A DNA stretch of 64,000 bases from Escherichia phage slur16. Below the pieces are notes generated by a model that had not been told where the DNA came from, did no database searches, and saw only the letters and a list, made by a program, of their open reading frames with translations. Every line of letters starts with the position of its first letter. Positions within the stretch are counted from its first letter, which is position 1. Shown piece after piece: positions 4,283 through 58,352 of the stretch. The stretch is from the sequence record NC_028248.1; one strand, written 5' to 3'. The translations under genes and the position numbers were made by a program.

Positions 4283-7200
4283 TTACTTCAGTTTCTCTTG
4301 CAATCCAGTAACAACCTCTGTCAATTTTTTAACCTGCTCCTCAAGGGCGGTTATTTTATCGTCCTGTTCCCTGCAAACCTGGACAAGCAAGCCTGTTACA
4401 GCTGCGTAGTCAACGTTATAGAACCTTTCCTCGGTCATCAGAGGAATACCGTCTTGAGTAGGACCTTCTATTTCCTTCCTTTTCACGAAAGATCCTACTG
4501 CCTCTGGCAATGCTTCCATAACCTCTTGAGCAATCACGCCTGCATAAGGCATACCATTCTCTTTCAAGGTGTAGGTATAGCCTTTCATCTTTCTAATTGC
4601 TTCCAGAGCGTTAGGTATGACCTCTATATTATCCTTCAGGTCTCTATCGGAACTTTGGCTAACAGTGGTACATTCTACCGTGCCGTTGACAGCAAAATAT
4701 CTTGATTTAGCCTCATCTGTCTTAGCTCCGCAGTGGAATACCCAGCTGGCGGCTGTTGAGTTATCACTTATCTGAAACTCAAGCACATTCTTCCTATCAG
4801 CGCCATTACCCCAATAGTACAACCTGCCTGTATTAGAAGGCATGTTCGAAGTGTTGGTAACATCAGCACCACCACCTGTGTGTATTGTGAACTCAGGTTC
4901 AAGATTGGACCCTTGAGTTTTTAAAGTGATACCCTTACCGCCAAGCTGCTGCCAATGGCCCCATGTGAAAACACCACCTATCGTTGTTCCATAACGCAGG
5001 AATTTTTCTCCAAGATATGTTGTATATTCCTGTACGCAACTCTCTGGAACGTTGGCATAGTTTCTATAGACAAGGAGAGTACCTGCCTGAGAGCATGGGT
5101 AGTTTCTATCAAGTGCGGCTTGAGCATTGGTCTCCTGATGATAAAAACCCTCTCTATCTCCTTTGTAGTCGTTAAGGTCATTAGTTCCCAACCCTTGACC
5201 ACGGTGCTGAATAACTTTGTTCCACGCTCTGTGGTTTCCCTGCTCTATGGAACGAGTGTACAGCTGGTCTAAACGACCTGCCATCTGGAAAGCGTAGTTT
5301 CCAGAAAAACCAACCGACAACCCTGCTACAACCATGGAACCTTCAGGTCCGTTGACGTTACCAGCCATTATTTTAGAAGGGTTGTTATTCCCGAACTGGT
5401 TGTTCCAGTCTGCACCTGTGTGGCATACAAAACCACCAGGAGCTGAGAAAGTGCCATCTTTGTTGAAGTTGTAGAATCTGTGAGCAGAACCTACAACATC
5501 ACGAACAATAACTTGACCAGCCTCTGGAGTAGATCTGAACTCTGCCTGACCTTTGAGACCAGCACCATTACCGCATTTAGAGGTAAACGTACCGTTAGTC
5601 AGATCCTCTGTCCCATCTGATGCACACTGGAAGCCTGCATTAGAGAATAACGCCTTTCTAGGACTGCCGTAGCACAAATAGTCAAGACCGTCTGCCCATA
5701 GCTCGACTTTTGGCATATTCATTTTGCTCATCACAGCATAGCGTTCAGCAGTGCCTATATAGTGCCACTGTGTGCCGCCACCAGTGTAGAACCCTGAAGT
5801 ACCTTTGAAGTCAACAATAGGTCTGGTATTGGTGTTATTATCTCCAAGAATAGCAAGATTCAAATCTGCTGACTGAAGAGGTGCAACGAACTTAACCCCA
5901 TCCTGATTGTCTGTTACAGCCCCAACCTGGTAATCTTGCTCTCTGGTAAACACTTCGACAACATTTCTACTTGCGTATATGCTGACAGGGAAAGCACGAG
6001 CCTCCACATAGAAAGCAACATACTCTTGTTTACCCCTTGTTGGAGCAATCATCCCAAGAAGTGCTTTTTCATTCTGGTAGAAATTTACTACCCCGTAGAA
6101 AGAGTCTCCCCTGTCCGTCCAGCCGCCAGTTCTATAGTGACACTGCAGGGTGGCACAGTTCATAGGGTCATTTCCAGATGAAGACCTGGTGACTATAGTA
6201 ATATCTGTACCTGTCGAAGGGGCGTAATACGGATCTGTTCTAACGATGATTGGGTAGTATTTCCCATCTTCCATCCCTGCGGTTCTTGGTAGTGTTAAGA
6301 AGTCTTTTACACCTGCTGCTATAGGAACTTTGAACAGATTCTGAGCATCTGCTAAAGTTGTAGCCCCGGTGCCACCTGCGGCTTGAGGTAGAGGTTCCCA
6401 CTTGGCCTTCCGGTTGTTATAAACACCCCATTCCAGAGTGCCGTTACCGGATTCGTCCATCCCACCATCCCAGATAACCATCTTGGCGGCTTTCTTGGAC
6501 CCCCAGAAGCCTCTTTCTGCTCCTGAACTACGAATCCACTCTCCAAGTCCCCAGTTTGTCAGCTGACCAGTAAGATCCCCAACCTGCATGTATTTAGGGC
6601 AGTCTAACACGCCGTCTTCGCGGAAACCTAAATATCTATGGGTTTCAGATCCTTTTGCACCTTTGTGCAGGTGGATTGTCAACCAAGCCTTATTGTCGTT
6701 TCTTACCTCAGAGTAGATCCTATATCCATGCTCAAGGACACCGTCAGCGCTGTATTTGTCCCCGTTAACAATACCTGATGCTGACTTAACATCAGCAGAA
6801 CTTTGAGACAGGTAAAGGTGCCCGAAGGTAGGGGAGTTTCTAGACCCGAGACCGATGTGCGATCTAAAGGTATCATCGTTACGAGGTCTGACCATTGGCT
6901 GCCATGCAGTCCACTGGTTTGTGTTGGCCTGATAGGTTCTCAAATACCAAACATCCACGTTAGAGAATGGATAGTATTCCTGACGACAACCTGTACCGCC
7001 GTTAGCATTGTTCTGCCAAACAATCAAGTGACCAGCACCAGAACCTGCAGGGTAACCATTTGCCTCAGTTGCATAAGCAGTCATCGGCTGGTAGTATACA
7101 CCATCCTGATTACCAGTCAAGTTATTGATATTGAAATTTGGCTCAAGGGCTGCACGTTGCTTATAGAAAGCCCCGATATTGATACGGACTCCAGCGGCAT

Positions 7201-8083
7201 CTCTGGCCCCCGTACCGCCTTGCTCTATAGCAAGAGGTTGCCACGAGGCTGTTTGTTGGTTCCACATGCCCCAACGGCCTGTTGCGTCAAGCTGCAAGTA
7301 CCCTGCCGTGTTTAAATCATCTCCAGCACGGATAACTGTTCTTGTTGGGTTGTTTGCCTCCAGGCGTTTAAATTCATCACGAAGTGCTATTCTTTTTGTT
7401 GTTGCTACACCGTTGGTTACTGCGATGGTATACATGGCTCCGGATGTAGCGCCACGGAAAATACCATCAACAGTTGTAGTATCACGACGAGATACCACAC
7501 CGTTCAGAAATTTTTCACCAGCTGCTACAGAAGGGTAGTTGGTGGTTCTTCCCTCTTCAATAACTGCAGGACCCACAAAGTTATCAAGGTGAATAACATC
7601 ACCTACAGTGTGCACCGTACCAAAATCTACACGCTGTGCAAGTGCTTTAGCATCGTTAGCTGTCTGAACAGTAACATCCATTACATCCTGGACAGACTGC
7701 CCTTCGGCTGTCATGATCATAGATGCGCCAATGGTAGATTCCAGCTCCTCCCTTAGGGACGGGTCAGTATATACCATCCATGCAGCGTCAGTAATCCCAC
7801 CATCGGAGTACGGTGAAGATAGTGCAGGAACAGTGTGTGGAAATTCGCCTTTCCAACGCAGGTAGAGATCTTCCTCTTCGAAATAGGCAAAATCCATTGG
7901 GCCGTTTAACTTACCACCTTCCTTAAAGGAGATTACATGAGAAACAGTCCCATCCACATGGACAACATCGCCAATTTTTACACGACGGGTCAGGTCTGGT
8001 TGTTGAACAACCAGGTAATCATCCTCTGTCACTGCGGTAGTGGCAGGAAGAGATTCAATTCTGACAACTTTAATATCAGCCAT
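4283..8083 (-). CDS. Long tail fiber protein with C-terminal intramolecular chaperone (peptidase S74-like) domain
   Basis: 1266-aa ORF. C-terminus SDRDLKDNIEVIPNALEAIRKMKGYTYTLKENG...ERFYNVDYAAVTGLLVQ plus terminal coiled coil matches the autoproteolytic chaperone domain of endosialidase / T5 L-shaped fiber type. N-terminal ~100 aa are paralogous to the 222-aa protein at 10718-11386. RBS AGGAG precedes the ATG. Confidence 0.75.
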   Translation of the reverse strand: MADIKVVRIESLPATTAVTEDDYLVVQQPDLTRRVKIGDVVHVDGTVSHVISFKEGGKLNGPMDFAYFEEEDLYLRWKGEFPHTVPALSSPYSDGGITDAAWMVYTDPSLREELESTIGASMIMTAEGQSVQDVMDVTVQTANDAKALAQRVDFGTVHTVGDVIHLDNFVGPAVIEEGRTTNYPSVAAGEKFLNGVVSRRDTTTVDGIFRGATSGAMYTIAVTNGVATTKRIALRDEFKRLEANNPTRTVIRAGDDLNTAGYLQLDATGRWGMWNQQTASWQPLAIEQGGTGARDAAGVRINIGAFYKQRAALEPNFNINNLTGNQDGVYYQPMTAYATEANGYPAGSGAGHLIVWQNNANGGTGCRQEYYPFSNVDVWYLRTYQANTNQWTAWQPMVRPRNDDTFRSHIGLGSRNSPTFGHLYLSQSSADVKSASGIVNGDKYSADGVLEHGYRIYSEVRNDNKAWLTIHLHKGAKGSETHRYLGFREDGVLDCPKYMQVGDLTGQLTNWGLGEWIRSSGAERGFWGSKKAAKMVIWDGGMDESGNGTLEWGVYNNRKAKWEPLPQAAGGTGATTLADAQNLFKVPIAAGVKDFLTLPRTAGMEDGKYYPIIVRTDPYYAPSTGTDITIVTRSSSGNDPMNCATLQCHYRTGGWTDRGDSFYGVVNFYQNEKALLGMIAPTRGKQEYVAFYVEARAFPVSIYASRNVVEVFTREQDYQVGAVTDNQDGVKFVAPLQSADLNLAILGDNNTNTRPIVDFKGTSGFYTGGGTQWHYIGTAERYAVMSKMNMPKVELWADGLDYLCYGSPRKALFSNAGFQCASDGTEDLTNGTFTSKCGNGAGLKGQAEFRSTPEAGQVIVRDVVGSAHRFYNFNKDGTFSAPGGFVCHTGADWNNQFGNNNPSKIMAGNVNGPEGSMVVAGLSVGFSGNYAFQMAGRLDQLYTRSIEQGNHRAWNKVIQHRGQGLGTNDLNDYKGDREGFYHQETNAQAALDRNYPCSQAGTLLVYRNYANVPESCVQEYTTYLGEKFLRYGTTIGGVFTWGHWQQLGGKGITLKTQGSNLEPEFTIHTGGGADVTNTSNMPSNTGRLYYWGNGADRKNVLEFQISDNSTAASWVFHCGAKTDEAKSRYFAVNGTVECTTVSQSSDRDLKDNIEVIPNALEAIRKMKGYTYTLKENGMPYAGVIAQEVMEALPEAVGSFVKRKEIEGPTQDGIPLMTEERFYNVDYAAVTGLLVQVCREQDDKITALEEQVKKLTEVVTGLQEKLK

Positions 8084-31062: not shown

Positions 31063-31139
31063 TGGTCTCCACGGAGTGATTCGAACACTCGACCTCCTGA
31101 TCCCAAATCAGGCGCTCTACCAAGCTGAGCTACGCGGAG
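31063..31139 (-). tRNA. tRNA-Pro (anticodon UGG)
   Basis: Folded by hand: acceptor CUCCGCG/CGUGGAG with C1:G72, anticodon stem CCUGA/UCAGG, loop UUUGGGA with G37, T-loop UUCGAAU, encoded CCA. Confidence 0.85.
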
Positions 31140-31150
31140 TATTTATTATT

Positions 31151-31225
31151 TGGTGGCCCTGGGTGGAATTGAACCACCGTCTGGCGATTATGAGTCGCTT
31201 GCTTGAACCTTCCAGCTACAGGGCC
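31151..31225 (-). tRNA. tRNA-Met (anticodon CAU; elongator type, tRNA-Ile2 not excluded)
   Basis: Acceptor GGCCCUG/CAGGGCC, anticodon loop CUCAUAA, T-arm GGUGG-UUCAAUU-CCACC, encoded CCA; G1:C72 argues against initiator. Confidence 0.8.
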
Positions 31226-31226
31226 A

Positions 31227-31302
31227 TGGTGCTGATGGCAGGACTTGAACCTGCAACCTATTGATTACAAATCAATTGCACTACCAATTGTGCTACATCA
31301 GC
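31227..31302 (-). tRNA. tRNA-Thr (anticodon UGU)
   Basis: 76-nt cloverleaf: acceptor GCUGAUG/CAUCAGC, D-stem GCAC/GUGC, anticodon stem AUUGA/UCAAU with loop UUUGUAA, T-arm GCAGG-UUCAAGU-CCUGC, CCA. Confidence 0.85.
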
Positions 31303-31308
31303 AAAAAA

Positions 31309-31407
31309 GGTGCTAGGTGATGGAATCGAACCACCTATGTATTCAACGACTACCTCGTCTATTTTCAGGATTAAAAATCCTCGCCCTTGCCAAAGGGCTT
31401 ACCTAGC
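31309..31407 (-). tRNA. Aberrant tRNA-like element (99 nt; possible tRNA-Lys UUU derivative with ~26 extra nt)
   Basis: Perfect 7-bp acceptor pairing GCUAGGU/ACCUAGC, D-arm GCCC-UUUGGCAA-GGGC, T-arm GGUGG-UUCGAUU-CCAUC, 3' end ...ACC followed by UUUUUU (no encoded CCA). The anticodon position is a palindromic hairpin AGGAUU-UUU-AAUCCU (alternatively a 4-bp stem with UUUUUAA loop, anticodon UUU), and ~30 nt lie between it and the T-arm. Confidence 0.35.
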
Positions 31408-31505
31408 TCAGTATGTTGACCATGTTGCTAGTCGGCGATGACGACTGTAACATTTGATAATCCGGTTCTGCTTCCGGCTTTCGCTTAATTACAAGGTCAA
31501 CAATA

Positions 31506-31596
31506 TGGCTGAGGGTAATGGAATCGAACCATCATCGAGTCATCCTCAACGGGACGGTTTTCAAGACCGCTTGAGCACCATTGCTCCCTACCCTCA
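31506..31596 (-). tRNA. tRNA-Ser (anticodon UGA)
   Basis: Type II tRNA: acceptor UGAGGGU/ACCCUCA, anticodon arm GCGGU-CUUGAAA-ACCGU, long variable arm (UUGAG-GAUGA-CUCGA), T-arm GAUGG-UUCGAUU-CCAUU, CCA. Confidence 0.8.
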
Positions 31597-31710
31597 TTTA
31601 TAAACAATACTGATAATGACACTGATTTTCGAGCAGTTAGTGACTAGTATAAACGACGATAAATATCAATGCCATTATCTGTATGATTTATGCATTTAAA
31701 ACTATAAATT

Positions 31711-31797
31711 TGGTGGGGAGTGGTGGAGTCGAACCACCCGAGTCGTAATGACAATAGATTTACAGTCTACACCGCTACCTCTACGGGATAACTCCCC
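31711..31797 (-). tRNA. tRNA-Tyr (anticodon GUA)
   Basis: Acceptor GGGGAGU/ACUCCCC, anticodon arm GUAGA-CUGUAAA-UCUAU, long variable arm, T-arm GGUGG-UUCGACU-CCACC, CCA. Confidence 0.8.
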
Positions 31798-31801
31798 AAT
31801 T

Positions 31802-31876
31802 TGGCACCCCGTACTGGACTCGAACCAGTGTCAACGGCTTAGAAGGCCGCTGCTTTATCCACTAAGCTAACAGGGC
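31802..31876 (-). tRNA. tRNA-Arg (anticodon UCU)
   Basis: Acceptor GCCCUGU/ACGGGGU (G-U wobbles), D-stem GCUU/AAGC, anticodon arm GCGGC-CUUCUAA-GCCGU, T-arm CUGG-UUCGAGU-CCAG, CCA. Confidence 0.8.
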
Positions 31877-34816: not shown

Positions 34817-35371
34817 TTACTCCACGCTGTCAATAGCAAGACTCATTGCAATACGGTATGCCTCTTCTAATGGTAAGAGTCTCCCCCACACATCCCAACC
34901 GACATCAAACTGCCTGCCAAACAACTGCTGTGTGGTTCCGTGAGCATGACCGAACAGTTGGACCGATCCGTGAGGCTTTCTGTTCCACTTTGCAAACTGG
35001 TAATGGCTCATACAGATCAAATTCTTGTTGTGGCGAAGCTCGTAATAATCTACAACCTCATGACCGAACTCTTTCATAATTCTGACAGTCGTCCTTGTGT
35101 CATGGTTACCACGAACAAGAATAATATGTCCGTTCAACATATTTAGAACATCTGGGAGCAATTTGTTAATATTCTTATCATTAGTGCACGCAATATCTCC
35201 TAAGTGAAACACAGTGTCTGCAGGTGACACAACAGAGTTCCACTTGGTGATGATCCCCGCATTCATACTGTCAAGATTGTGATCATACTGAGATCTGTGT
35301 TTTTGACATGAGTCAAACTCCATGACCCGCTGGTGGAGAAAGTGTGTGTCGCTTGTTACAAAGTATTTCAT
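34817..35371 (-). CDS. Calcineurin-like metallophosphoesterase (putative polynucleotide 2',3'/3' phosphatase)
   Basis: Start trimmed to MKYFVTSDTHF; metallophosphoesterase motifs DTHF, HLGDI, VRGNHD, GHAH. Confidence 0.65.
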   Translation of the reverse strand: MKYFVTSDTHFLHQRVMEFDSCQKHRSQYDHNLDSMNAGIITKWNSVVSPADTVFHLGDIACTNDKNINKLLPDVLNMLNGHIILVRGNHDTRTTVRIMKEFGHEVVDYYELRHNKNLICMSHYQFAKWNRKPHGSVQLFGHAHGTTQQLFGRQFDVGWDVWGRLLPLEEAYRIAMSLAIDSVE

Positions 35372-35378
35372 ACATTCC

Positions 35379-35789
35379 TCATTTAAGTTTAATGCAGTTT
35401 TTAAGCTGGCGTTCCATACGATCCACAACCCTGTCTGGAACATCATGAATGCTTTTACTACCATGGCGGTTTTCAACCACGATTACGGTATAACTATACC
35501 TATGACTGATCGCCATGTCAATATATTCTTGCACATATTTTTCTTTTGTAAATGTATTACTTACCACGATACGGTCGTATCCCATACGCATCATATCTTC
35601 TACGTTATCTTTGCACCATTTTGCTGCAAGTGTTACTTTACTTGCATCCCAGTTGTAATTTCCATCATCGTCGTACCAGAACATGTCGTTCTCAAAATGT
35701 GGATACAGACCTTCTAAAGATAGCGCACTTGCCAGTGTTGATTTGCCAGACCCTGGTAGACCACGCACGATATATAGCATTTTAGACAT
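35379..35789 (-). CDS. P-loop polynucleotide 5'-kinase-like protein (T4 Pnk kinase-domain-like)
   Basis: Start at MSKMLYIVRG preceded by GGAGG RBS; Walker A GLPGSGKST, downstream VVSNTF, resembling the T4 Pnk kinase domain layout. Confidence 0.55.
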   Translation of the reverse strand: MSKMLYIVRGLPGSGKSTLASALSLEGLYPHFENDMFWYDDDGNYNWDASKVTLAAKWCKDNVEDMMRMGYDRIVVSNTFTKEKYVQEYIDMAISHRYSYTVIVVENRHGSKSIHDVPDRVVDRMERQLKNCIKLK

Positions 35790-35889
35790 AGTAATCCTCC
35801 GTTTTAATTTCAACGATAGTATACCTAACTGTTTTGTTAATTTCAAGTGTTGACACTAGGTTATTTGTGTGGCAGGATAGACTGACAAA

Positions 35890-36825
35890 ATGACAAATGA
35901 GGAACGTATGATGAAGTATTTTAATGCAGACGACCTAGTTGACAAAGGTCTTGTAACCAGCAGATATCACCCAGACCTTGGGTTAAAGATCTATAAATAT
36001 GCCAGAAAAGTATTCTACAACAACTTATGGCATTTGTCTCCTCGATTACTGGAGTGCCGAGGCATTGTTGTCGGTAATGAAGGAAATGTTGTGGCATGGC
36101 CCTTTACAAAAGTGTTTAACTTGGGAGAAAACTCCACCAACCTGCCTGACAATAAGCTTGTGACGGCGGTAGAGAAAAAGAACGGATTCCTTGGTGTGGT
36201 GTCATCTCATAAAGGTGAACTATTGTTCTCAACAACCGGGTCTCTTGATTCTCCATATTGTAACCTTGCAAAGGAAACCATCCAGGAGCAATGTGGTAAT
36301 TTAGATCTTATCAAGAAGGTTATGGGCAATGAAAATATGACATTCATGTTTGAAATTTGTCACCCCTCAGATCCGCATATTGTTCAGGAAGATCATGGCG
36401 CATATTTGATAGGTTGCAGATATAATGATTCTGGAATAATGCTACCAGAAGCAGCTTTAGATGGGATTGCCAAATACCTTGGTGCAAAACGTCCTCACAC
36501 TGTGCGTGAAATTCCGTTCAGTTATGCAAAAGAATTAGCTGCAGAAACAAGAGGTGAAGGGTATATGATTCGTAAGCCTTACTACCCTTATGATCTGCAG
36601 CTGAAGATTAAGTCTCCATACTATCTGGCACGGAAGGCCGTAATGAGGGGTAAAGCTTGGAAGATTTGGGATGATGATATCTTTAAACGTGTTGACGAAG
36701 AGTTTTACGGCATGGTAAACTTCATTCGTAACAACTACACAGAGGATGTATGGAACTGCCTCCTGGAGCAGGAACGCCGTGAGATACTCGATTACTATTT
36801 CCACAACGAGAACTATATGCAATGA
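35890..36825 (+). CDS. ATP-dependent RNA ligase-like nucleotidyltransferase (putative Rnl)
   Basis: Ligase motif I KxNG (VEKKNGF), motif III-like FMFEI, motif IV EGYMIRK, motif V LKIKSP; 311 aa without a DNA-ligase OB domain; a separate DNA ligase exists at 39297. Start may be the downstream ATG pair with GAGGA RBS. Confidence 0.5.
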   Translation: MTNEERMMKYFNADDLVDKGLVTSRYHPDLGLKIYKYARKVFYNNLWHLSPRLLECRGIVVGNEGNVVAWPFTKVFNLGENSTNLPDNKLVTAVEKKNGFLGVVSSHKGELLFSTTGSLDSPYCNLAKETIQEQCGNLDLIKKVMGNENMTFMFEICHPSDPHIVQEDHGAYLIGCRYNDSGIMLPEAALDGIAKYLGAKRPHTVREIPFSYAKELAAETRGEGYMIRKPYYPYDLQLKIKSPYYLARKAVMRGKAWKIWDDDIFKRVDEEFYGMVNFIRNNYTEDVWNCLLEQERREILDYYFHNENYMQ

Positions 36826-37172
36826 AGAAGTTGATTGTGTGGCTAGATGACTTGAGAGATCCGTCAAAGTACGGGCTCCAAGACGCTGTTTGGCTAAAGA
36901 ATTCCTCCGAGTTTATAGATTTTATTAACGATAATAGAAAGCTCTACAGACGCGTTTCTGAGTGGCATATGGACAACGACCTTGGAGAGGTATTCGAAGG
37001 GTACGATTGCCTATCTATGTTGGAGGAAAAATTTGTATTTGGTAAGCCTCCTGTAGTTGACAACGTGAAGATTTTCGTGCATACTTCTAACCCATCAGCG
37101 GCTCGTAAATTCATGCTTGCAGCTGACTCGTTTAAAAAGTTTGGAATAGAGATTAAACAAAACATCTACTGA
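36822..37172 (+). CDS. Hypothetical protein
   Basis: 116-aa ORF with 4-nt overlap to the upstream gene. Confidence 0.3.
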   Translation: MKKLIVWLDDLRDPSKYGLQDAVWLKNSSEFIDFINDNRKLYRRVSEWHMDNDLGEVFEGYDCLSMLEEKFVFGKPPVVDNVKIFVHTSNPSAARKFMLAADSFKKFGIEIKQNIY

Positions 37173-37180
37173 GGACACTT

Positions 37181-37942
37181 ATGCGACGACTGATTATTAT
37201 CTCCGGTGCTGGTTTGAGCGCTGAATCTGGTATTCCCACTTTCCGATCTGGTAGCACTGCAATGTGGGAGAATTTCAGCATCGATGAGGTGTGCAACATC
37301 CACACCTTTGCCAAGAACTACTATAAGGTGCATGACTTTTACAATGCACGTCGTGTAGCTTTAGGCAGTGTTGAGCCTAACCTTGCACATCTTCGGATCG
37401 CTGAGTGGTATTCCCGCTGGTCTGGTCGTGTGATCAACCTTACCACCAATGTAGATGATTTGCTGGAGCGTGCTGGTGTAAAACATGAAGATATTTTACA
37501 TGTCCACGGGTATTTGCCAGAAATAGTCTATGAGGACGATGAAGGAAGTGACGTCATTAAGGACATTGGATACTCTGAGGTAGACGCAGGAAAGTATACC
37601 TGGGTTAAGCCTAATGTGGTGTTCTTCGGAGAAGTAGCTCCGAAGTATACAGACATGTATGACCTGTTGACTTCTCTTACGAGCAATGATATGGTTATCC
37701 TTGTAGGGTGCTCCAACACAGTTATCAATTTTAACTGGGAGCTATTCCCTGCCTGCAATAAGGGAACCAAACTACTGATCGTTAATAAATACGACTCACA
37801 GCATCTAGAGGAGAATGGCATTTCACGTAGTGATATTTACCAGTATGAGGATCGTGGCATCCCAGTTTGGTTTAACGGTGCGGTTGATGCCTTCTCTGAT
37901 AAAACATTCATTGAGACTGTAGAAAACTTTATGGAACTTTAA
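37181..37942 (+). CDS. Sir2-family (sirtuin-like) NAD-dependent protein, zinc-less
   Basis: Sirtuin motifs GAGLSAESGIPTFR, TTNVDDLLERAG...HVHG, VVFFGE; no CxxC...CxxC zinc-ribbon insertion. Confidence 0.7.
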   Translation: MRRLIIISGAGLSAESGIPTFRSGSTAMWENFSIDEVCNIHTFAKNYYKVHDFYNARRVALGSVEPNLAHLRIAEWYSRWSGRVINLTTNVDDLLERAGVKHEDILHVHGYLPEIVYEDDEGSDVIKDIGYSEVDAGKYTWVKPNVVFFGEVAPKYTDMYDLLTSLTSNDMVILVGCSNTVINFNWELFPACNKGTKLLIVNKYDSQHLEENGISRSDIYQYEDRGIPVWFNGAVDAFSDKTFIETVENFMEL

Positions 37943-37955
37943 AAGGAGACCTTTA

Positions 37956-38669
37956 ATGCTGAATACTAAACTGATCGACAACCTGGAAAAACTGTCTCAG
38001 CCTGAAAACTACCTTTGGTCTGCCAACTGGGTGGAAAACTGGAACCGTGTGGCAGCTAAAGTGAAAAAATCATACACACCATTCGAATTACAGCTTAGCT
38101 TCATTGAGGAAGAGTTCAATGAGGTTTTGGAAGAGCTGGAGAAAGGTGATGGTGGAGATCACCTGCTAAAAGAGGCCTGCGATCTTCACGTTGTCACAAG
38201 TTATGCCGCTTATCTTGTTAATGATAATCACGAAAAGTGGTCAAACCTGTTTGATAATCCACGAGGTCTTAAGTTCAAGATCGGTGAGTTCTATGATACA
38301 CTGATCGCTGCGAAAAACACATCCAAGCAAAGAGCGTCAGCTTACCGTTTAGCTGAGTTGTCAACAGCTTTGCTGTTCCAGCTTCGCGGCGATGTGTGCG
38401 GGATGATGCGTAAGGTTCTCAAATCGAATGACAGCAAGTTTGCACGGGTCAACCATCTACGGTATTCACACGGTGCCAGTGCAGATATGCCTGCTGAACA
38501 ACTCATAGAGTTGGAGATTAAAGATCTTGAGCGACGCTTTGATGGTCGATATGAAGGTTTTGTTGCTAAGGAAGAATTCTACAACGGTAATAAAGTTATC
38601 ATATTCCTTGACAGTAAAGGTAAGATCATGAAGCCTTCGAGCTTCAAGGATGTAGCAGAGTATATTTAA
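37956..38669 (+). CDS. MazG-like all-alpha NTP pyrophosphohydrolase (putative)
   Basis: EEEFNEVLEELEKGDGGDHLLKEACD fits the EExxE...E..D metal-binding pattern; weak. Confidence 0.35.
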   Translation: MLNTKLIDNLEKLSQPENYLWSANWVENWNRVAAKVKKSYTPFELQLSFIEEEFNEVLEELEKGDGGDHLLKEACDLHVVTSYAAYLVNDNHEKWSNLFDNPRGLKFKIGEFYDTLIAAKNTSKQRASAYRLAELSTALLFQLRGDVCGMMRKVLKSNDSKFARVNHLRYSHGASADMPAEQLIELEIKDLERRFDGRYEGFVAKEEFYNGNKVIIFLDSKGKIMKPSSFKDVAEYI

Positions 38670-38677
38670 CAACATGG

Positions 38678-38700
38678 CCGGGATTACCCGGCTTTACTTG
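38678..38700 (+). terminator. Rho-independent terminator
   Basis: Hairpin GCCGGG-AUUA-CCCGGC followed by UUUACUUGUU, directly after the stop at 38669. Confidence 0.5.
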
Positions 38701-39041: not shown

Positions 39042-39297
39042 TCTTGCTAAACCTGTAGAAGCACACCAGTTTGACGGAAGCTCTTCATCAGTATCTGATC
39101 TGCAACGGTGGATTGATACAGGTGTGTTTACATCGTCACCTGTTCGGACCAGAGATCTTCGTCGCATGTGTGAGCTTGTAGAGCCGTTTGGTAACCTAGT
39201 CTTGTACCAGGGTGATTGGCTTGTTGATTTTATGGGGGACTGGTTGGTAATGAGTAAAGAAGAGATGTTTAAAATTTTTAAGGAAGAGGCCGAGTAA
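39028..39297 (+). CDS. Hypothetical protein
   Basis: 89-aa ORF. Confidence 0.3.
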   Translation: MPLFNLAKPVEAHQFDGSSSSVSDLQRWIDTGVFTSSPVRTRDLRRMCELVEPFGNLVLYQGDWLVDFMGDWLVMSKEEMFKIFKEEAE

Positions 39298-40580
39298 TGC
39301 ATCAAATCAAAACAACACTGTACGCACTGAACAAAGATGGCAGCTACCAACAGTGGAAAGTATTCACGGATGGTGATAAGGTTATCGTAGAGTTTGGCAA
39401 GCTTGATGGTAAACTGCAATACAAAGAGACGATCTGCACACCTAAGAACGTGGGTCGCGCCAATGAAACTACAGCTGAGCAACAGGCCGAGCTGGAAGCG
39501 ATCAGTAAGTGGGAAAAACAGGTCCGACTCGGGTACGTGGAGAGTATGGAAGATTGTGAGCAAGGTGTTGATCTTTTACCCATGTTGGTGCATGACTACC
39601 TGAAGCGTGGCAAGGCACTTAAATTACCTTGCTGGATCTTGCGTAAGTTAGATGGCCTTCGTCTACTTGTTGTTTTCCAGAATGGTGAGCCTAAATTTAT
39701 TTCCCGTGGTAATAAGTCCTACCCTATTCAAGGAAAGCTTCTGGAGCAACTTCGCTCTTTCCACCTAACCACCGGGATTAAACAGCTCGACGGAGAGCTC
39801 TATATTCATGGTCTACCTCTGCAGAAAATAGTGTCTCTTGCTAAACGGTGGCGCACACAGGAAGAAATTCAGGCCGAGATCGATAAAGACTACAAGGCAG
39901 ATAAAAAACGCCGTCAGGCTGCGATTAAAGCAGGTTTAGCAACATACAAAAACTTCAACAAGGTGGACATTCCTGTTGATGTTGAGCCTGTTCGTGATGA
40001 TTTGCGTTACGGAGGGTACTGCAGCTACGACTTAGAGTATCATATTTTCGATATTCCTAGCGATAAGGTGTGGTGGGATCCTGAAACAGAGTCTGGTCGC
40101 TGTAAGGATCTTATGGAGGCAAACGGTGCTATTACTTCTTTGATGCTTGATCATATTAAGGTTGTTGATGCAGAGCTTGCATATACGGTTGATCGGTGCG
40201 AAGAGTCTGTTGGTATATTTATGTCTGAAGGATATGAAGGTACCATTATGCGTAACTTCTGTGGTAAATATGAGTATGGTCAGCGAACATCTGAAGCATT
40301 GAAATGGAAAAAGTTCAACGACGCAGAGGTGAAAGTTATTGACGTTGAGAAAGATAAGAATGATGAAGGTGTTCTTATCTGTGTTGACAAGGAAGGTGTT
40401 GTTGTTAAAATGAAGATGAAAGGCACGCACGAGGAGCGTAGCTATGACAGGATGCAGGAAATGATCGGCAAGTTTGTCACCTTCAAATATCAAGCAAGGA
40501 CAGAAGACAACAACTACCAATTCCCTGTCGGTATCTGCGTCCGAAATGTTAACCCAGATACTTGGGAGGTTCTGGAATGA
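39297..40580 (+). CDS. ATP-dependent DNA ligase
   Basis: Motif I KLDGLR (adenylation lysine), motif IV EGTIMR, motif V ALKWKKF; 427 aa. Confidence 0.75.
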   Translation: MHQIKTTLYALNKDGSYQQWKVFTDGDKVIVEFGKLDGKLQYKETICTPKNVGRANETTAEQQAELEAISKWEKQVRLGYVESMEDCEQGVDLLPMLVHDYLKRGKALKLPCWILRKLDGLRLLVVFQNGEPKFISRGNKSYPIQGKLLEQLRSFHLTTGIKQLDGELYIHGLPLQKIVSLAKRWRTQEEIQAEIDKDYKADKKRRQAAIKAGLATYKNFNKVDIPVDVEPVRDDLRYGGYCSYDLEYHIFDIPSDKVWWDPETESGRCKDLMEANGAITSLMLDHIKVVDAELAYTVDRCEESVGIFMSEGYEGTIMRNFCGKYEYGQRTSEALKWKKFNDAEVKVIDVEKDKNDEGVLICVDKEGVVVKMKMKGTHEERSYDRMQEMIGKFVTFKYQARTEDNNYQFPVGICVRNVNPDTWEVLE

Positions 40581-56430: not shown

Positions 56431-57702
56431 AGGAGACAGCAGACTCCATTCATCACATTGAGTTTAGGACTGGATACCTCGGTCTTTGGTAGAATGATTA
56501 CCAAAAACTACCTGAAAGTCCACAAAATGGGTCTTGGTGAAGAACGTATCACACCTGTGTTCCCTAAAGTGCTGTTCTTCCTGGAAGAGGGTGTCAACAT
56601 GAACCCTGGGGATCCTAACTATGATTTGAAACGATTAGCTCTGGAATGCTGTGCAGAACGTATCTATCCTGACTTCGTATCTGTACCACTAAATAGAAAA
56701 GTGACAGGCTCGACAGATGGCAAAGTAACTAGCATGGGTTGCAGGAGTTTTCTTAGCAAATACAATGACTTGGAAACAGGCGAGGAGAAATACCTTGGCA
56801 GATTTAACTTAGGCGTTGTTAGCCTTAACCTGCCAATGATTGCGGCAAAAGCCAAGACGGAAGGTGTTGATTTCTTTGCAGTTCTTGACGAATACTTGGA
56901 TCTTGCATACGAGGCTCACCTTGTAAGGGTTAATCGTCTAAAAGGAACAAAGGCAGGGCAGAACCCCATCATGTGGTGTGAAGGCGCTCTTGCTCGCCTG
57001 GATCCTGAAGAGAGTATTGATAAACTCTTCTATGACGGGTACGCTTCCATCAGTATTGGGTATATCGGTGTGTATGAAACCTGTCAGATTTTGGGCAGAG
57101 AGGGTGACAAGGCTTTAGCTCTTGGAATCCTTCAGCACATGAGAGATGCTTGTGAGCGATACAAGAAGGAAAGTAGACTAGCATTTAGCTTGTACGGCAC
57201 TCCTTCTGAGAGTCTATGCTATAAAGCTGCAACCTGTCTGGATCGTGAATATCCGGAAGTGTTGAAGCACGAGCATGAATATCTCACCAACAGTTTCCAT
57301 CAGCCAGTATGGATAAATAGCTCTCCTTTTGATAAGTGGGAGTATGAGGAAGGTTTTGCTATAATCTCCTCTGGTGGCAACATCGGATACGTAGAAACAC
57401 CTAACCTGAAAAACAACCTGGATGCTTTAGAGGCTCTTGTTGACTTCGGGTATAAACACATTATGTATTTTGGTATTAACCAACCTGTGGATAAATGTCT
57501 CAAGTGTGGTTTCTCTGGTGAGTTCAGTGCAACAGCTAAAGGCTTTGTATGCCCAGAGTGTGGAAACCATGAAGAGGGAACGATCAGTGTAATTCGACGT
57601 GTGTCTGGATACCTTTCCAGTCCTAACTCCCGTCCTTACAATAAAGGTAAGCAAGCGGAAGTTATCGAGCGAGTTAAGCACTACGGAAGTTGTGGTTGCT
57701 GA
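56431..57702 (+). CDS. nrdD: Anaerobic ribonucleoside-triphosphate reductase, exon 2
   Basis: Contains SMGCRS active-site cysteine motif, glycyl-radical motif RRVSGYL near the C-terminus and Zn-site CPECGNHEE; 5' boundary approximate. Confidence 0.75.
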   Translation, partial: RRQQTPFITLSLGLDTSVFGRMITKNYLKVHKMGLGEERITPVFPKVLFFLEEGVNMNPGDPNYDLKRLALECCAERIYPDFVSVPLNRKVTGSTDGKVTSMGCRSFLSKYNDLETGEEKYLGRFNLGVVSLNLPMIAAKAKTEGVDFFAVLDEYLDLAYEAHLVRVNRLKGTKAGQNPIMWCEGALARLDPEESIDKLFYDGYASISIGYIGVYETCQILGREGDKALALGILQHMRDACERYKKESRLAFSLYGTPSESLCYKAATCLDREYPEVLKHEHEYLTNSFHQPVWINSSPFDKWEYEEGFAIISSGGNIGYVETPNLKNNLDALEALVDFGYKHIMYFGINQPVDKCLKCGFSGEFSATAKGFVCPECGNHEEGTISVIRRVSGYLSSPNSRPYNKGKQAEVIERVKHYGSCGC

Positions 57703-57765
57703 TTCTTGACAAAAGCCACAAGGATGTGGCATATTATTGACACACAGTGAGCTAGGAGGTGCAGT

Positions 57766-57882
57766 ATGTCATCAGGTATTTATAAAATTTGCAAGTGCGG
57801 CTGTAGTTGTAATCTTCGTTGGTGCAAGGCACTAGACGATTTTATTTGGCATTGCCCTAAATGTGATGCGGAGTATCTATGA
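57766..57882 (+). CDS. Tiny Cys-rich protein (38 aa), hypothetical zinc-ribbon
   Basis: Not in the track (<60 aa). AGGAGGT RBS 7 nt upstream of ATG; MSSGIYKICKCGCSCNLRWCKALDDFIWHCPKCDAEYL; ATGA overlap with the nrdG start. Confidence 0.3.
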   Translation: MSSGIYKICKCGCSCNLRWCKALDDFIWHCPKCDAEYL

Positions 57883-58352
57883 ACATTGCTGGATACACAG
57901 AAATATCTTACACCGAAGGACCAGGTATTAGAACTGCCTTGTGGGTATCTGGGTGCCCACACGCTTGCCCTGGTTGCTTTAATCAGGCATTTTGGTCAAA
58001 AGATAAGGGGAGGAAGTTCACTGAAGAAGACTTGCAAAAAATCTTGTCAGATTTAGATAACCCGTCTGTGTGCGGTATCTCTCTACTGGGTGGAGAACCC
58101 TTAGCATACTATAATGAGCCAGATATTATTAGCCTGATGGAGAAAATTAAGGAAAAATTTGGTGACAAGAAAACTATTCTTGTATATACTGGGTTCACAT
58201 TTGACCATATCTCTAGTGATGTTCTTAAACTGGCTGATATCATCATTGACGGTAAGTATGTAAAAGATTTACCAACCAAGAAACCGTTCCGAGGCAGTGA
58301 TAACCAAAGAATGTTTAAAAAAGTATCAGGCGGTTGGGTTCAGGTAGACTAG
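57879..58352 (+). CDS. nrdG: Anaerobic ribonucleotide reductase activating enzyme (radical SAM)
   Basis: 157 aa; radical-SAM cluster motif GCPHACPGCFN near the N-terminus; follows nrdD. Confidence 0.8.
   Translation: MNIAGYTEISYTEGPGIRTALWVSGCPHACPGCFNQAFWSKDKGRKFTEEDLQKILSDLDNPSVCGISLLGGEPLAYYNEPDIISLMEKIKEKFGDKKTILVYTGFTFDHISSDVLKLADIIIDGKYVKDLPTKKPFRGSDNQRMFKKVSGGWVQVD

Follow-up and report, generated by a model that had tools for sequence, protein, structure and literature searches.

A cysteine-less sirtuin encoded among RNA end-processing genes in Escherichia phage slur16

Introduction

We analysed a stretch of 64,000 nucleotides from Escherichia phage slur16 (NC_028248.1; hereafter the window), in which an open reading frame (ORF) at 37181–37942 encodes a protein of the Sir2 (sirtuin) family. 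The protein is a sirtuin of the CobB/SIRT5 lineage that has lost its zinc ligands, and its gene lies among genes whose products point to RNA end processing. We weigh a possible role in the removal of 2′-phosphates from RNA against deacylation and other functions.

Escherichia phage slur12 matches the region at 100% identity, and 118 other records, nearly all of them rV5-like Vequintavirus, match it at 90–99%; in the matching records the gene goes by "cobB NAD-dependent protein deacylase", "Sir2-like protein" or a comparable name. Skliros et al. (2016) modelled the Sir2/CobB proteins of Vibrio phages phiSt2 and phiGrn1 on CobB, found the zinc ligand absent there and likewise in KVP40, proposed that these proteins deacetylate host Acs and named T5 and others as carriers (PMC5107563). 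Iyer, Burroughs, Anantharaman and Aravind (2022, Viruses 14:1977) described a sirtuin-centred RNA-repair system, "type 2", with Escherichia phage V5 and Proteus phage Mydo as its prototype, and predicted in section 3.7.3 that the sirtuin is KptA/Tpt1-like and removes RNA 2′-phosphates; zinc is not discussed in that paper (PMC9503650). Our literature search found these two in-silico papers only and no experimental work on phage sirtuins. The "phage Sir2" of the NARP3 paper was considered as a further phage sirtuin and set aside, as the term there means anti-phage Sir2-HerA. The gene, its zinc-less state, its neighbourhood and the KptA-like hypothesis are already known, and our scan adds little to them. 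New here are the covariation of cysteine loss with a TTN motif, the invariance of a YxxR motif and of the catalytic His, an origin among zinc-binding cellular sirtuins, the uneven linkage to RNA repair and the acidic character of the protein.

Results

A sirtuin without zinc ligands

The ORF starts with ATG and encodes 253 amino acids (aa), with motifs as follows (residue numbers in parentheses).

37181–37942, plus strand: cysteine-less class III-like sirtuin, 253 aa, with the GAGLS...FR loop that binds nicotinamide adenine dinucleotide (NAD) (9–22), FYNARR, containing the YxxR anion pocket (53–58), TTNVDD, with Gln replaced by Thr (88–93), His109, a Cys-free small module (111–143), VVFFGE (146–151), GCSN (176–179) and Asn202

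The Pfam SIR2 profile (PF02146) matched the protein with E=3e-27 and 96.2 bits (cutoff 24) over profile positions 1–178 of 180, and PHROG 2162, "Sir2 (NAD-dependent deacetylase)", matched with E=9e-110. Thus, the match of this ORF to the Sir2 family is far above chance, which bears out an earlier note, made from the letters of the window, that had read a zinc-less Sir2-family protein here and had named the lack of a Sir2 profile hit as grounds for dropping that reading. The motifs on which the note relied were located at residues 9–22 (GAGLSAESGIPTFR), 88–94 (TTNVDDL), 107–110 (HVHG) and 146–151 (VVFFGE); as it had proposed, the NAD-binding and catalytic motifs are intact, with His109, Asn90 and Asp92 invariant in a 54-sequence alignment of the clade. 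Pfam recognised this one domain only. By sequence, the closest relatives with solved structures were SIRT5, E. coli CobB and Archaeoglobus Sir2 (E ~2e-21), and the NCBIfam CobB/deacylase equivalog models matched well under their curated cutoffs (best 122.7 vs 243).

The clade alignment contained 44 invariant columns, with a mean column identity of 59%. Invariant residues include S16, F21, R22, Y54, R57, R58, N90, D92, H109, F148, F149, E151 and N202, together with the NAD loop (G9-A-G-L-S13...F21-R22) and H109-G110. Other positions have changed throughout the clade: TQN has become TTN, GTS has become GCS or GSS, and the Pro of the substrate-strand VYP has been lost. In place of the class III motifs TQN(I/V)D and GTS...VYP, the slur16 protein has TTNVDD, GCSN and V-I-N. 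The gene is under purifying selection, and its product is a folded sirtuin, of CobB/SIRT5 (class III-like) descent, that very probably uses NAD+ and is catalytically competent.

The protein has three cysteines in all (residues 38, 177 and 192). None falls within residues 111–143, which in the alignment correspond to the zinc module of E. coli CobB and human SIRT5, where both of these have at least three cysteines; the cysteine pairs that the earlier note had described as lacking at the zinc-ribbon position are indeed absent, and the CxxC...CxxC (Cys4) pattern of canonical sirtuins is lacking as judged from sequence. The ribbon position has been retained rather than deleted, with 33 residues vs 36 in CobB. 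An AlphaFold2 model built from the 54-sequence alignment had a predicted local distance difference test score (pLDDT) of 90.6 and a predicted template modelling score of 0.88, and strands 110–118, 124–128 and 142–146 formed a three-stranded small module with pLDDT ~95. When this model was compared with the PDB using Foldseek, E. coli CobB ranked first (E=4e-18; template modelling score 0.74 query-normalised and 0.83–0.84 target-normalised), followed by Archaeoglobus Sir2, SIRT5 and SIRT2. In the model, then, the small domain appears to keep a ribbon-like beta module without using a Cys4 zinc site. Sequence and predicted fold together indicate a true sirtuin of the CobB/SIRT5/Sir2Af type whose zinc ligands have been lost.

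Residues of CobB from E. coli K-12 served as the reference for mapping and correspond to those of the phage sirtuin as follows.

CobB F60: F21
CobB A76: C38
CobB Y92: Y54
CobB R95: R57
CobB Q129: T89
CobB N130: N90
CobB I131: V91
CobB D132: D92
CobB H147: H109
CobB V187: V146
CobB F190: F149
CobB V219-Y220-P221: V181-I182-N183

The phage protein has kept the residues of the NAD pocket and of the hydrophobic acyl-lysine tunnel, the catalytic His with the Asn/Asp pair, and the YxxR anion pocket of class III. The phage protein shares with CobB and SIRT5 the fold, the GAGxS...FR loop, FYNARR (identical to CobB), xNxD, the catalytic HG, the FGE loop, the late Asn and the length of the small module. 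It differs in having no zinc cysteines, in TTN, GCS and VIN, in ~45 extra C-terminal residues and in an overall identity of only ~27%. The phiSt2, phiGrn1 and KVP40 sirtuins are alike in that the zinc ligand is absent in silico and the His and acetyl-lysine tunnel are kept; unlike the slur16 protein, they belong to another phage group, occur in an NAD-salvage context, with which the NAMPT-linked locus L061 described below may be compared, and retain the substrate-strand Pro (INP) that the rV5 clade has lost.

Origin of the cysteine-less clade

We searched exhaustively for relatives among 1.84 billion cluster representatives and recovered 5682, 75 of them at E below 1e-30. Module cysteines were scored in the 143 of the best 150 relatives that were long enough. 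Of these, 49 had 0–1 module Cys, and 36 of the 49 had Thr at the Gln position of TQN. Another 90 had at least three module Cys; Gln was kept in 76 of them, as mostly was GTS. The catalytic His was present in all 143. Thus, the loss of cysteines covaries with the change from TQN to TTN in these sequences, a descriptive association that kinship inflates.

For viral relatives, we scanned IMG/VR with the clade alignment, which yielded 64 loci at 39–95% identity; look-ups of encoding contigs added three more. After dereplication the sirtuins formed 24 lineages. Tyr54 and Arg57 were present in all 24. Twenty-two lineages were Cys-less (0–2 module Cys) and had T(T/S)N and YxxR, while the two most divergent, L062 and L064, were canonical (4-Cys/TQN/GTSG). 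Two of the closest zinc-binding relatives had a cellular context, one beside purine-biosynthesis genes and one beside a lipoate-protein ligase gene on a Mycoplasma-like contig. Since the nearest zinc-binding relatives are cellular, 22 of the 24 viral lineages are Cys-less and the two divergent ones are canonical, the phage clade descends from housekeeping CobB-like zinc-binding sirtuins, with the ligands lost once and early. An "IGY" motif was considered as a phage-specific determinant and rejected, as zinc-binding cellular relatives have it too.

The relative on the Mycoplasma-like contig (P0136; L079, 4714–5427) shares its contig with the Mycoplasma-specific family MpPF1 as well as the lipoate-protein ligase. 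Translation of its gene with table 11 does not reproduce the query, which would fit genetic code 4.

The gene neighbourhood in the window

The features around the sirtuin gene are as follows.

34817–35371, minus strand: calcineurin-like metallophosphoesterase, 184 aa, directly downstream of the kinase gene (Metallophos/Metallophos_2, 27.5 bits; PHROG 547, E=6e-52)
35379–35789, minus strand: P-loop polynucleotide-kinase-like protein, 136 aa (AAA_33, 37.6 bits; PHROG 2071 and PHROG 505 "polynucleotide kinase"; Walker A motif GLPGSGKST; ATG start as in OR062943)
35890–36825, plus strand: RnlA (T4 Rnl1)-type ATP-dependent RNA ligase, 311 aa, first of the four-gene unit (Pfam RNA_lig_T4_1, 56.1 bits vs 28.3; PHROG 562, E=8e-67; "RNA ligase" in related records)
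36822–37172, plus strand: cyclic-phosphate processing receiver domain (cREC) protein, 116 aa (PF20274, 56.5 bits vs 27; PHROG 1479; DD...D acidic residues conserved in the alignment)
37956–38669, plus strand: MazG/HisE-superfamily (all-alpha nucleoside triphosphate pyrophosphohydrolase)-like protein, 237 aa, last of the unit (PHROG 671, E=5e-22)
38676–38693, both strands: GC-rich hairpin with a stem of 6–7 base pairs, 6 of them GC, and a weak T-tract, 7 nucleotides (nt) past the MazG-like stop codon (from a consensus scan only)
39297–40580, plus strand: ATP-dependent DNA ligase, 427 aa, following two small genes (profile matches; accompanies the sirtuin in all class A lineages described below)
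31063–31876, minus strand: phage tRNA cluster of 7 ARAGORN calls, ~3 kb from the module

The ligase and cREC genes overlap by 4 nt, 8 nt separate cREC from the sirtuin gene, and 13 nt separate the latter from the MazG-like gene. Because this spacing is tight, the sirtuin gene is, judging by spacing, co-transcribed with the RNA ligase, cREC and MazG-like genes as the third of four, and the hairpin is a probable terminator of the unit. The kinase and phosphoesterase genes are transcribed divergently from it. The earlier note had placed the sirtuin between an RNA-ligase-like and a MazG-like gene; the downstream MazG-like neighbour stands, while the immediate upstream neighbour is cREC, with the ligase one gene further. 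The MazG-like protein of the window had no Pfam match of its own, while a homolog at another viral locus (L087, 14256–14984) passed the Pfam PRA-PH threshold (26.3 vs 21.3 bits). PDB sequence searches with the RNA ligase, kinase, cREC and MazG-like proteins, made with the question of a T4- or Trl1-like ligase in mind, gave no usable matches.

This gene content is identical to that of the type 2 system of Iyer et al. (2022), which comprises a sirtuin, a T4-like tRNA ligase, cREC, a nucleotide kinase, MazG and a calcineurin-like phosphoesterase; in this rV5-like phage, all six lie within 34817–38669. Together, the kinase, phosphoesterase, RnlA-type ligase and cREC point to healing and sealing of RNA or nucleic-acid ends, and the products of the tRNA cluster are plausible clients of the repair system. 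Within that cluster, one 99-nt tRNA-like ARAGORN call (31309–31407, minus strand) came without an assigned identity, and its anticodon, atcc, has four bases. The call may reflect a tRNA gene that is degenerate or contains an intron, a frameshift-suppressor-like tRNA or an error of prediction.

Linkage of the sirtuin to RNA-repair genes across phages

Clustering of the neighbour genes in the 24 viral lineages separated several arrangements. In class A (6 lineages, rV5- and Mydo-like), the sirtuin is accompanied by the phosphoesterase, kinase, RnlA, DNA ligase and MazG-like genes, and in most by cREC. This set was conserved beside the sirtuin in ~13 IMG/VR loci of the 6 lineages, with Sir2 identities of 45–58%.

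Class B consists of 6 T5-like lineages, including T5.102, a member of the Cys-less clade that also contains the slur16 gene. Here the sirtuin shares a short operon of early genes with a HAD_SAK_2 "Swiss-army-knife RNA repair" phosphatase, which may precede or follow it, and NrdD, PhoH and NrdA are encoded nearby. When the T5 genome was searched for RnlA, cREC, AAA_33 kinase and MazG-like proteins, none was found. A further T5 gene, T5.105 (L073, 17588–18094; record 57588–58094), bears the label "Sir2 (NAD-dependent deacetylase)" in NC_005859, as does PHROG 18062. T5.105 is a HAD_SAK_2 phosphatase (PF18143, 71.9 bits for the homolog at L011, 9142–9648). The label is a propagating mis-annotation, through which T5-like phages appear to have two sirtuins.

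In class C (8 of the 24 lineages; Phapecoctavirus and relatives), the sirtuin is flanked only by genes for uncharacterised proteins and by a methyltransferase-like gene. These neighbours (PHROGs 9509, 8514 and 16551; DUF7275/7277; the methyltransferase-like protein) were compared by hhalign with cREC, HAD_SAK_2, kinase, phosphoesterase, MazG and RnlA as possible cryptic relatives, and were rejected as such, all probabilities being <6%. In the Phapecoctavirus ECO340P2 (L070–L072), a complete cREC-phosphoesterase-RnlA-kinase-MazG cluster is present at record positions 100760–106372, and the sirtuin gene lies 25 kb from this intact module, at 131374–132189, among genes of unknown function. The same phage has a gene for an Acb2/Tad1-hairpin protein (anti-CBASS/anti-Thoeris sponge-like) 4 kb upstream of the sirtuin. 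At two other class C loci (L087, 9971–14984, and L089), cREC, phosphoesterase, two small ORFs, an ATP-dependent DNA ligase and a MazG-like gene occur in that order, with no RnlA or kinase detectable within 10 kb. As cREC and MazG travel with a DNA ligase here, it is a possibility that the module heals DNA ends besides RNA ends.

Locus L061, a divergent Cys-less sirtuin on a 120-kb viral contig, has NAMPT at 6057–7493, two genes upstream of the sirtuin, which suggests that nicotinamide release is coupled to NAD+ salvage there. Endonuclease VII and NrdD genes lie downstream. No repair genes were found near the sirtuin of the jumbo-phage locus L064. Iyer et al. (2022) present the RNA-repair link as a common thread, whereas 8 of our 24 lineages have no adjacent repair genes and T5 has no RNA ligase. 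Thus, the association with RNA repair is real, yet neither universal nor always adjacent.

A phmmer search with E. coli KptA found nothing in the window, and no KptA homolog was detectable in one whole rV5-like genome, in ECO340P2 or in T5. A cREC-centred scan of IMG/VR, which asked if KptA replaces the sirtuin elsewhere, returned only 11 loci, nearly all from the same phages.

Discussion

A possible role in 2′-phosphate removal

After Iyer et al. (2022), the reading that we find most likely, and hold tentatively, is that the sirtuin acts in RNA end healing and sealing as a functional analogue of KptA/Tpt1. We favour it because the sirtuin is associated with genes for RNA end processing in three configurations, with genome-level co-occurrence in class C; because KptA was not detectable in the four sequences searched; and because the clade-specific changes sit in the substrate strand and the small domain. 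The chemistry is a further reason, since the sirtuin and Tpt1 reactions are closely parallel. In both, an oxygen nucleophile displaces nicotinamide at C1′′, and the ribose 2′′-OH then attacks. The proposed likeness to KptA/Tpt1 thus extends from NAD+ dependence, through C1′′ attack and 2′′-OH transesterification, to association with genes for RNA ligase, kinase and cyclic phosphodiesterase. The folds are unrelated: KptA/Tpt1 has an ADP-ribosyltransferase fold, while the phage protein is a Rossmann sirtuin.

In the mechanism that we envisage, 2′,3′-cyclic-phosphate and 5′-OH ends would be left by a metal-independent RNase, such as an anticodon nuclease of the host. The cyclic phosphate would be opened by cREC and/or the phosphoesterase, the 5′ end phosphorylated by the kinase, and the break sealed by RnlA. 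The leftover 2′-phosphate, possibly held in the Tyr54/Arg57 pocket (the site of the succinyl/malonyl carboxylate in SIRT5 and CobB), would then attack C1′′ of sirtuin-bound NAD+ and nicotinamide would leave. With His109 as the general base, the 2′′-OH of the ADP-ribose would attack the phosphate, giving RNA with a 2′-OH and ADP-ribose 1′′-2′′ cyclic phosphate, which cREC and the MazG-like enzyme may degrade. In its fullest form, the proposal makes the Cys-less phage sirtuin the first sirtuin-fold enzyme to act on nucleic acid: it would strip 2′-phosphates from repaired tRNA or other RNA in an NAD+-dependent reaction convergent with Tpt1/KptA, with the "succinyl" pocket repurposed, cREC and the MazG-like protein clearing the by-product and a yeast-type heal-and-seal pathway completed. 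We consider this complete version doubtful.

Several observations weigh against a KptA-like role. To our knowledge, activity on RNA has not been demonstrated for any sirtuin, and the T4-type Pnkp/Rnl1 pathway leaves no 2′-phosphate. The residues of the CobB acyl-lysine tunnel are all conserved or conservatively replaced, and the sequence is equally consistent with an ordinary deacylase. The phage protein is acidic, with an isoelectric point (pI) of 4.81 (clade median 5.14), vs 9.37 for E. coli KptA. The unknown and methyltransferase-like neighbours in class C, the distance between sirtuin and module in ECO340P2, the lack of RnlA, cREC, AAA_33 kinase and MazG-like proteins in the T5 search and the proximity of NAMPT in L061 count in the same direction. 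Finally, the synteny of class A is partly inherited rather than independently selected, since the class A lineages are related phages. KptA-like activity and deacylation fit the evidence almost equally.

Other possible functions

The protein may instead be a canonical NAD+-dependent lysine deacylase, CobB-like and, in view of its YxxR pocket, probably favouring acidic acyl groups such as succinyl or malonyl, or a lipoamidase. Such an enzyme would alter the acylation of host or phage proteins in the early phase of infection; acetyl-CoA synthetase and other adenylate-forming enzymes are examples of proteins that it might activate. The adjacency of RNA-repair genes would reflect shared early timing. 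We regard this as only slightly less likely than the KptA-like role. The best matches by sequence and structure (CobB, SIRT5 and Sir2Af) are experimentally proven deacylases, the tunnel and catalytic residues are all kept, and YxxR is invariant across all 22 Cys-less viral lineages. Among zinc-binding relatives, the nearest are cellular genes of the housekeeping kind, including one beside lipoate-protein ligase; the acidic pI is akin to that of CobB-S (5.4), and the genomic contexts are heterogeneous. Deacylation is also the function put forward for related phage sirtuins by Skliros et al. (PMC5107563). In addition, rV5-like genomes encode elsewhere a protein annotated as a macro domain, which could consume O-acyl-ADP-ribose. 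This 122-aa protein (L077, 25324–25692, in 241Ecol014PP; record 125324–125692), ~87 kb from the sirtuin, scored 20.3 bits against a Pfam Macro cutoff of 22, over its C-terminal 19 residues only; its substrate could be O-acyl-ADP-ribose or ADP-ribose-1′′-phosphate. Against deacylation, every NCBIfam CobB/deacylase equivalog falls far under its cutoff, TQN and GTS have changed and the otherwise strictly conserved Pro of VYP has been lost clade-wide, three different configurations tie the sirtuin to RNA-end-processing genes, and the host has CobB already.

The altered substrate-binding strand and small domain, together with the macro-domain gene, would also suit an ADP-ribosyltransferase acting on protein, or on nucleic acid at sites other than 2′-phosphates (SirTM-like or SIRT4/6-like), with a host translation or defence factor or 5′-phosphate ends as examples of targets; the sirtuin fold supports ADP-ribosyl transfer (PMC9503650). 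We think this unlikely. SirTM types replace the catalytic His and pair operonically with a macro domain, whereas here His is present in 143 of 143 relatives, His109 is kept in the phage protein and the only macro-like gene lies ~87 kb away in the rV5-like genome and scores under the Pfam cutoff. No target can be suggested. Least likely, to the point of being improbable, is the idea raised in the earlier note: an NAD+ glycohydrolase, a modulator of the NAD pool or an enzyme that counters defence through immune signals derived from NAD. The NAMPT gene two genes from the L061 sirtuin, the Acb2/Tad1-hairpin gene 4 kb upstream in ECO340P2 and the known investment of T5-like phages in NAD+ restoration (PMC13464706) speak for it. 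We found nothing specific to modulation of host NAD metabolism or to counter-defence; the context in the window points to repair of RNA or nucleic-acid ends, and retention of the acyl/anion pocket makes a specific acceptor more likely. NAD+ depletion would also hurt a phage that needs NAD+, such as T5 with its NAD-dependent DNA ligase.

The note had further grouped the protein with NAD-degrading defence effectors as "Sir2 domains of this type", a grouping that did not hold: its sequence and fold are those of CobB/SIRT5/Sir2Af. PADLOC gave only a 34-residue match (E=0.0076), and ThsA, DSR/DSR2 and Sir2-HerA did not occur in the Foldseek top 50. Defence-associated SIR2 NADases are likewise not known to have a Cys4 zinc ribbon. 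Those enzymes (ThsA, DSR1/2, Sir2-HerA and SPARSA) belong to the same broad superfamily and are encoded by the host; the phage gene has no sensor or partner domains, its product being a single domain, and neither as fusions nor as operon partners, its neighbours being RNA-repair genes, did we find SLOG, HerA, pAgo/APAZ or a DSR C-terminal sensor.

The carriers belong to three large, much-used groups of coliphages (rV5-like, T5-like and phAPEC8-like). If the KptA-like prediction is true, sirtuin chemistry extends from protein acyl-lysines to RNA phosphates, and the final repair of tRNAs cut by host anticodon nucleases would be explained, a form of counter-defence relevant to host range and therapy. 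If the protein is an ordinary deacylase, the phage would use it to reshape the acylation of host proteins, and it would be a natural example of zinc-free folding in the small domain of a sirtuin.

Additional observations

In the rV5-like Escherichia phage 241Ecol014PP, the annotation splits nrdD (anaerobic ribonucleotide reductase; L069, 17239–20168) into three pieces and places an HNH homing endonuclease gene between the first two.

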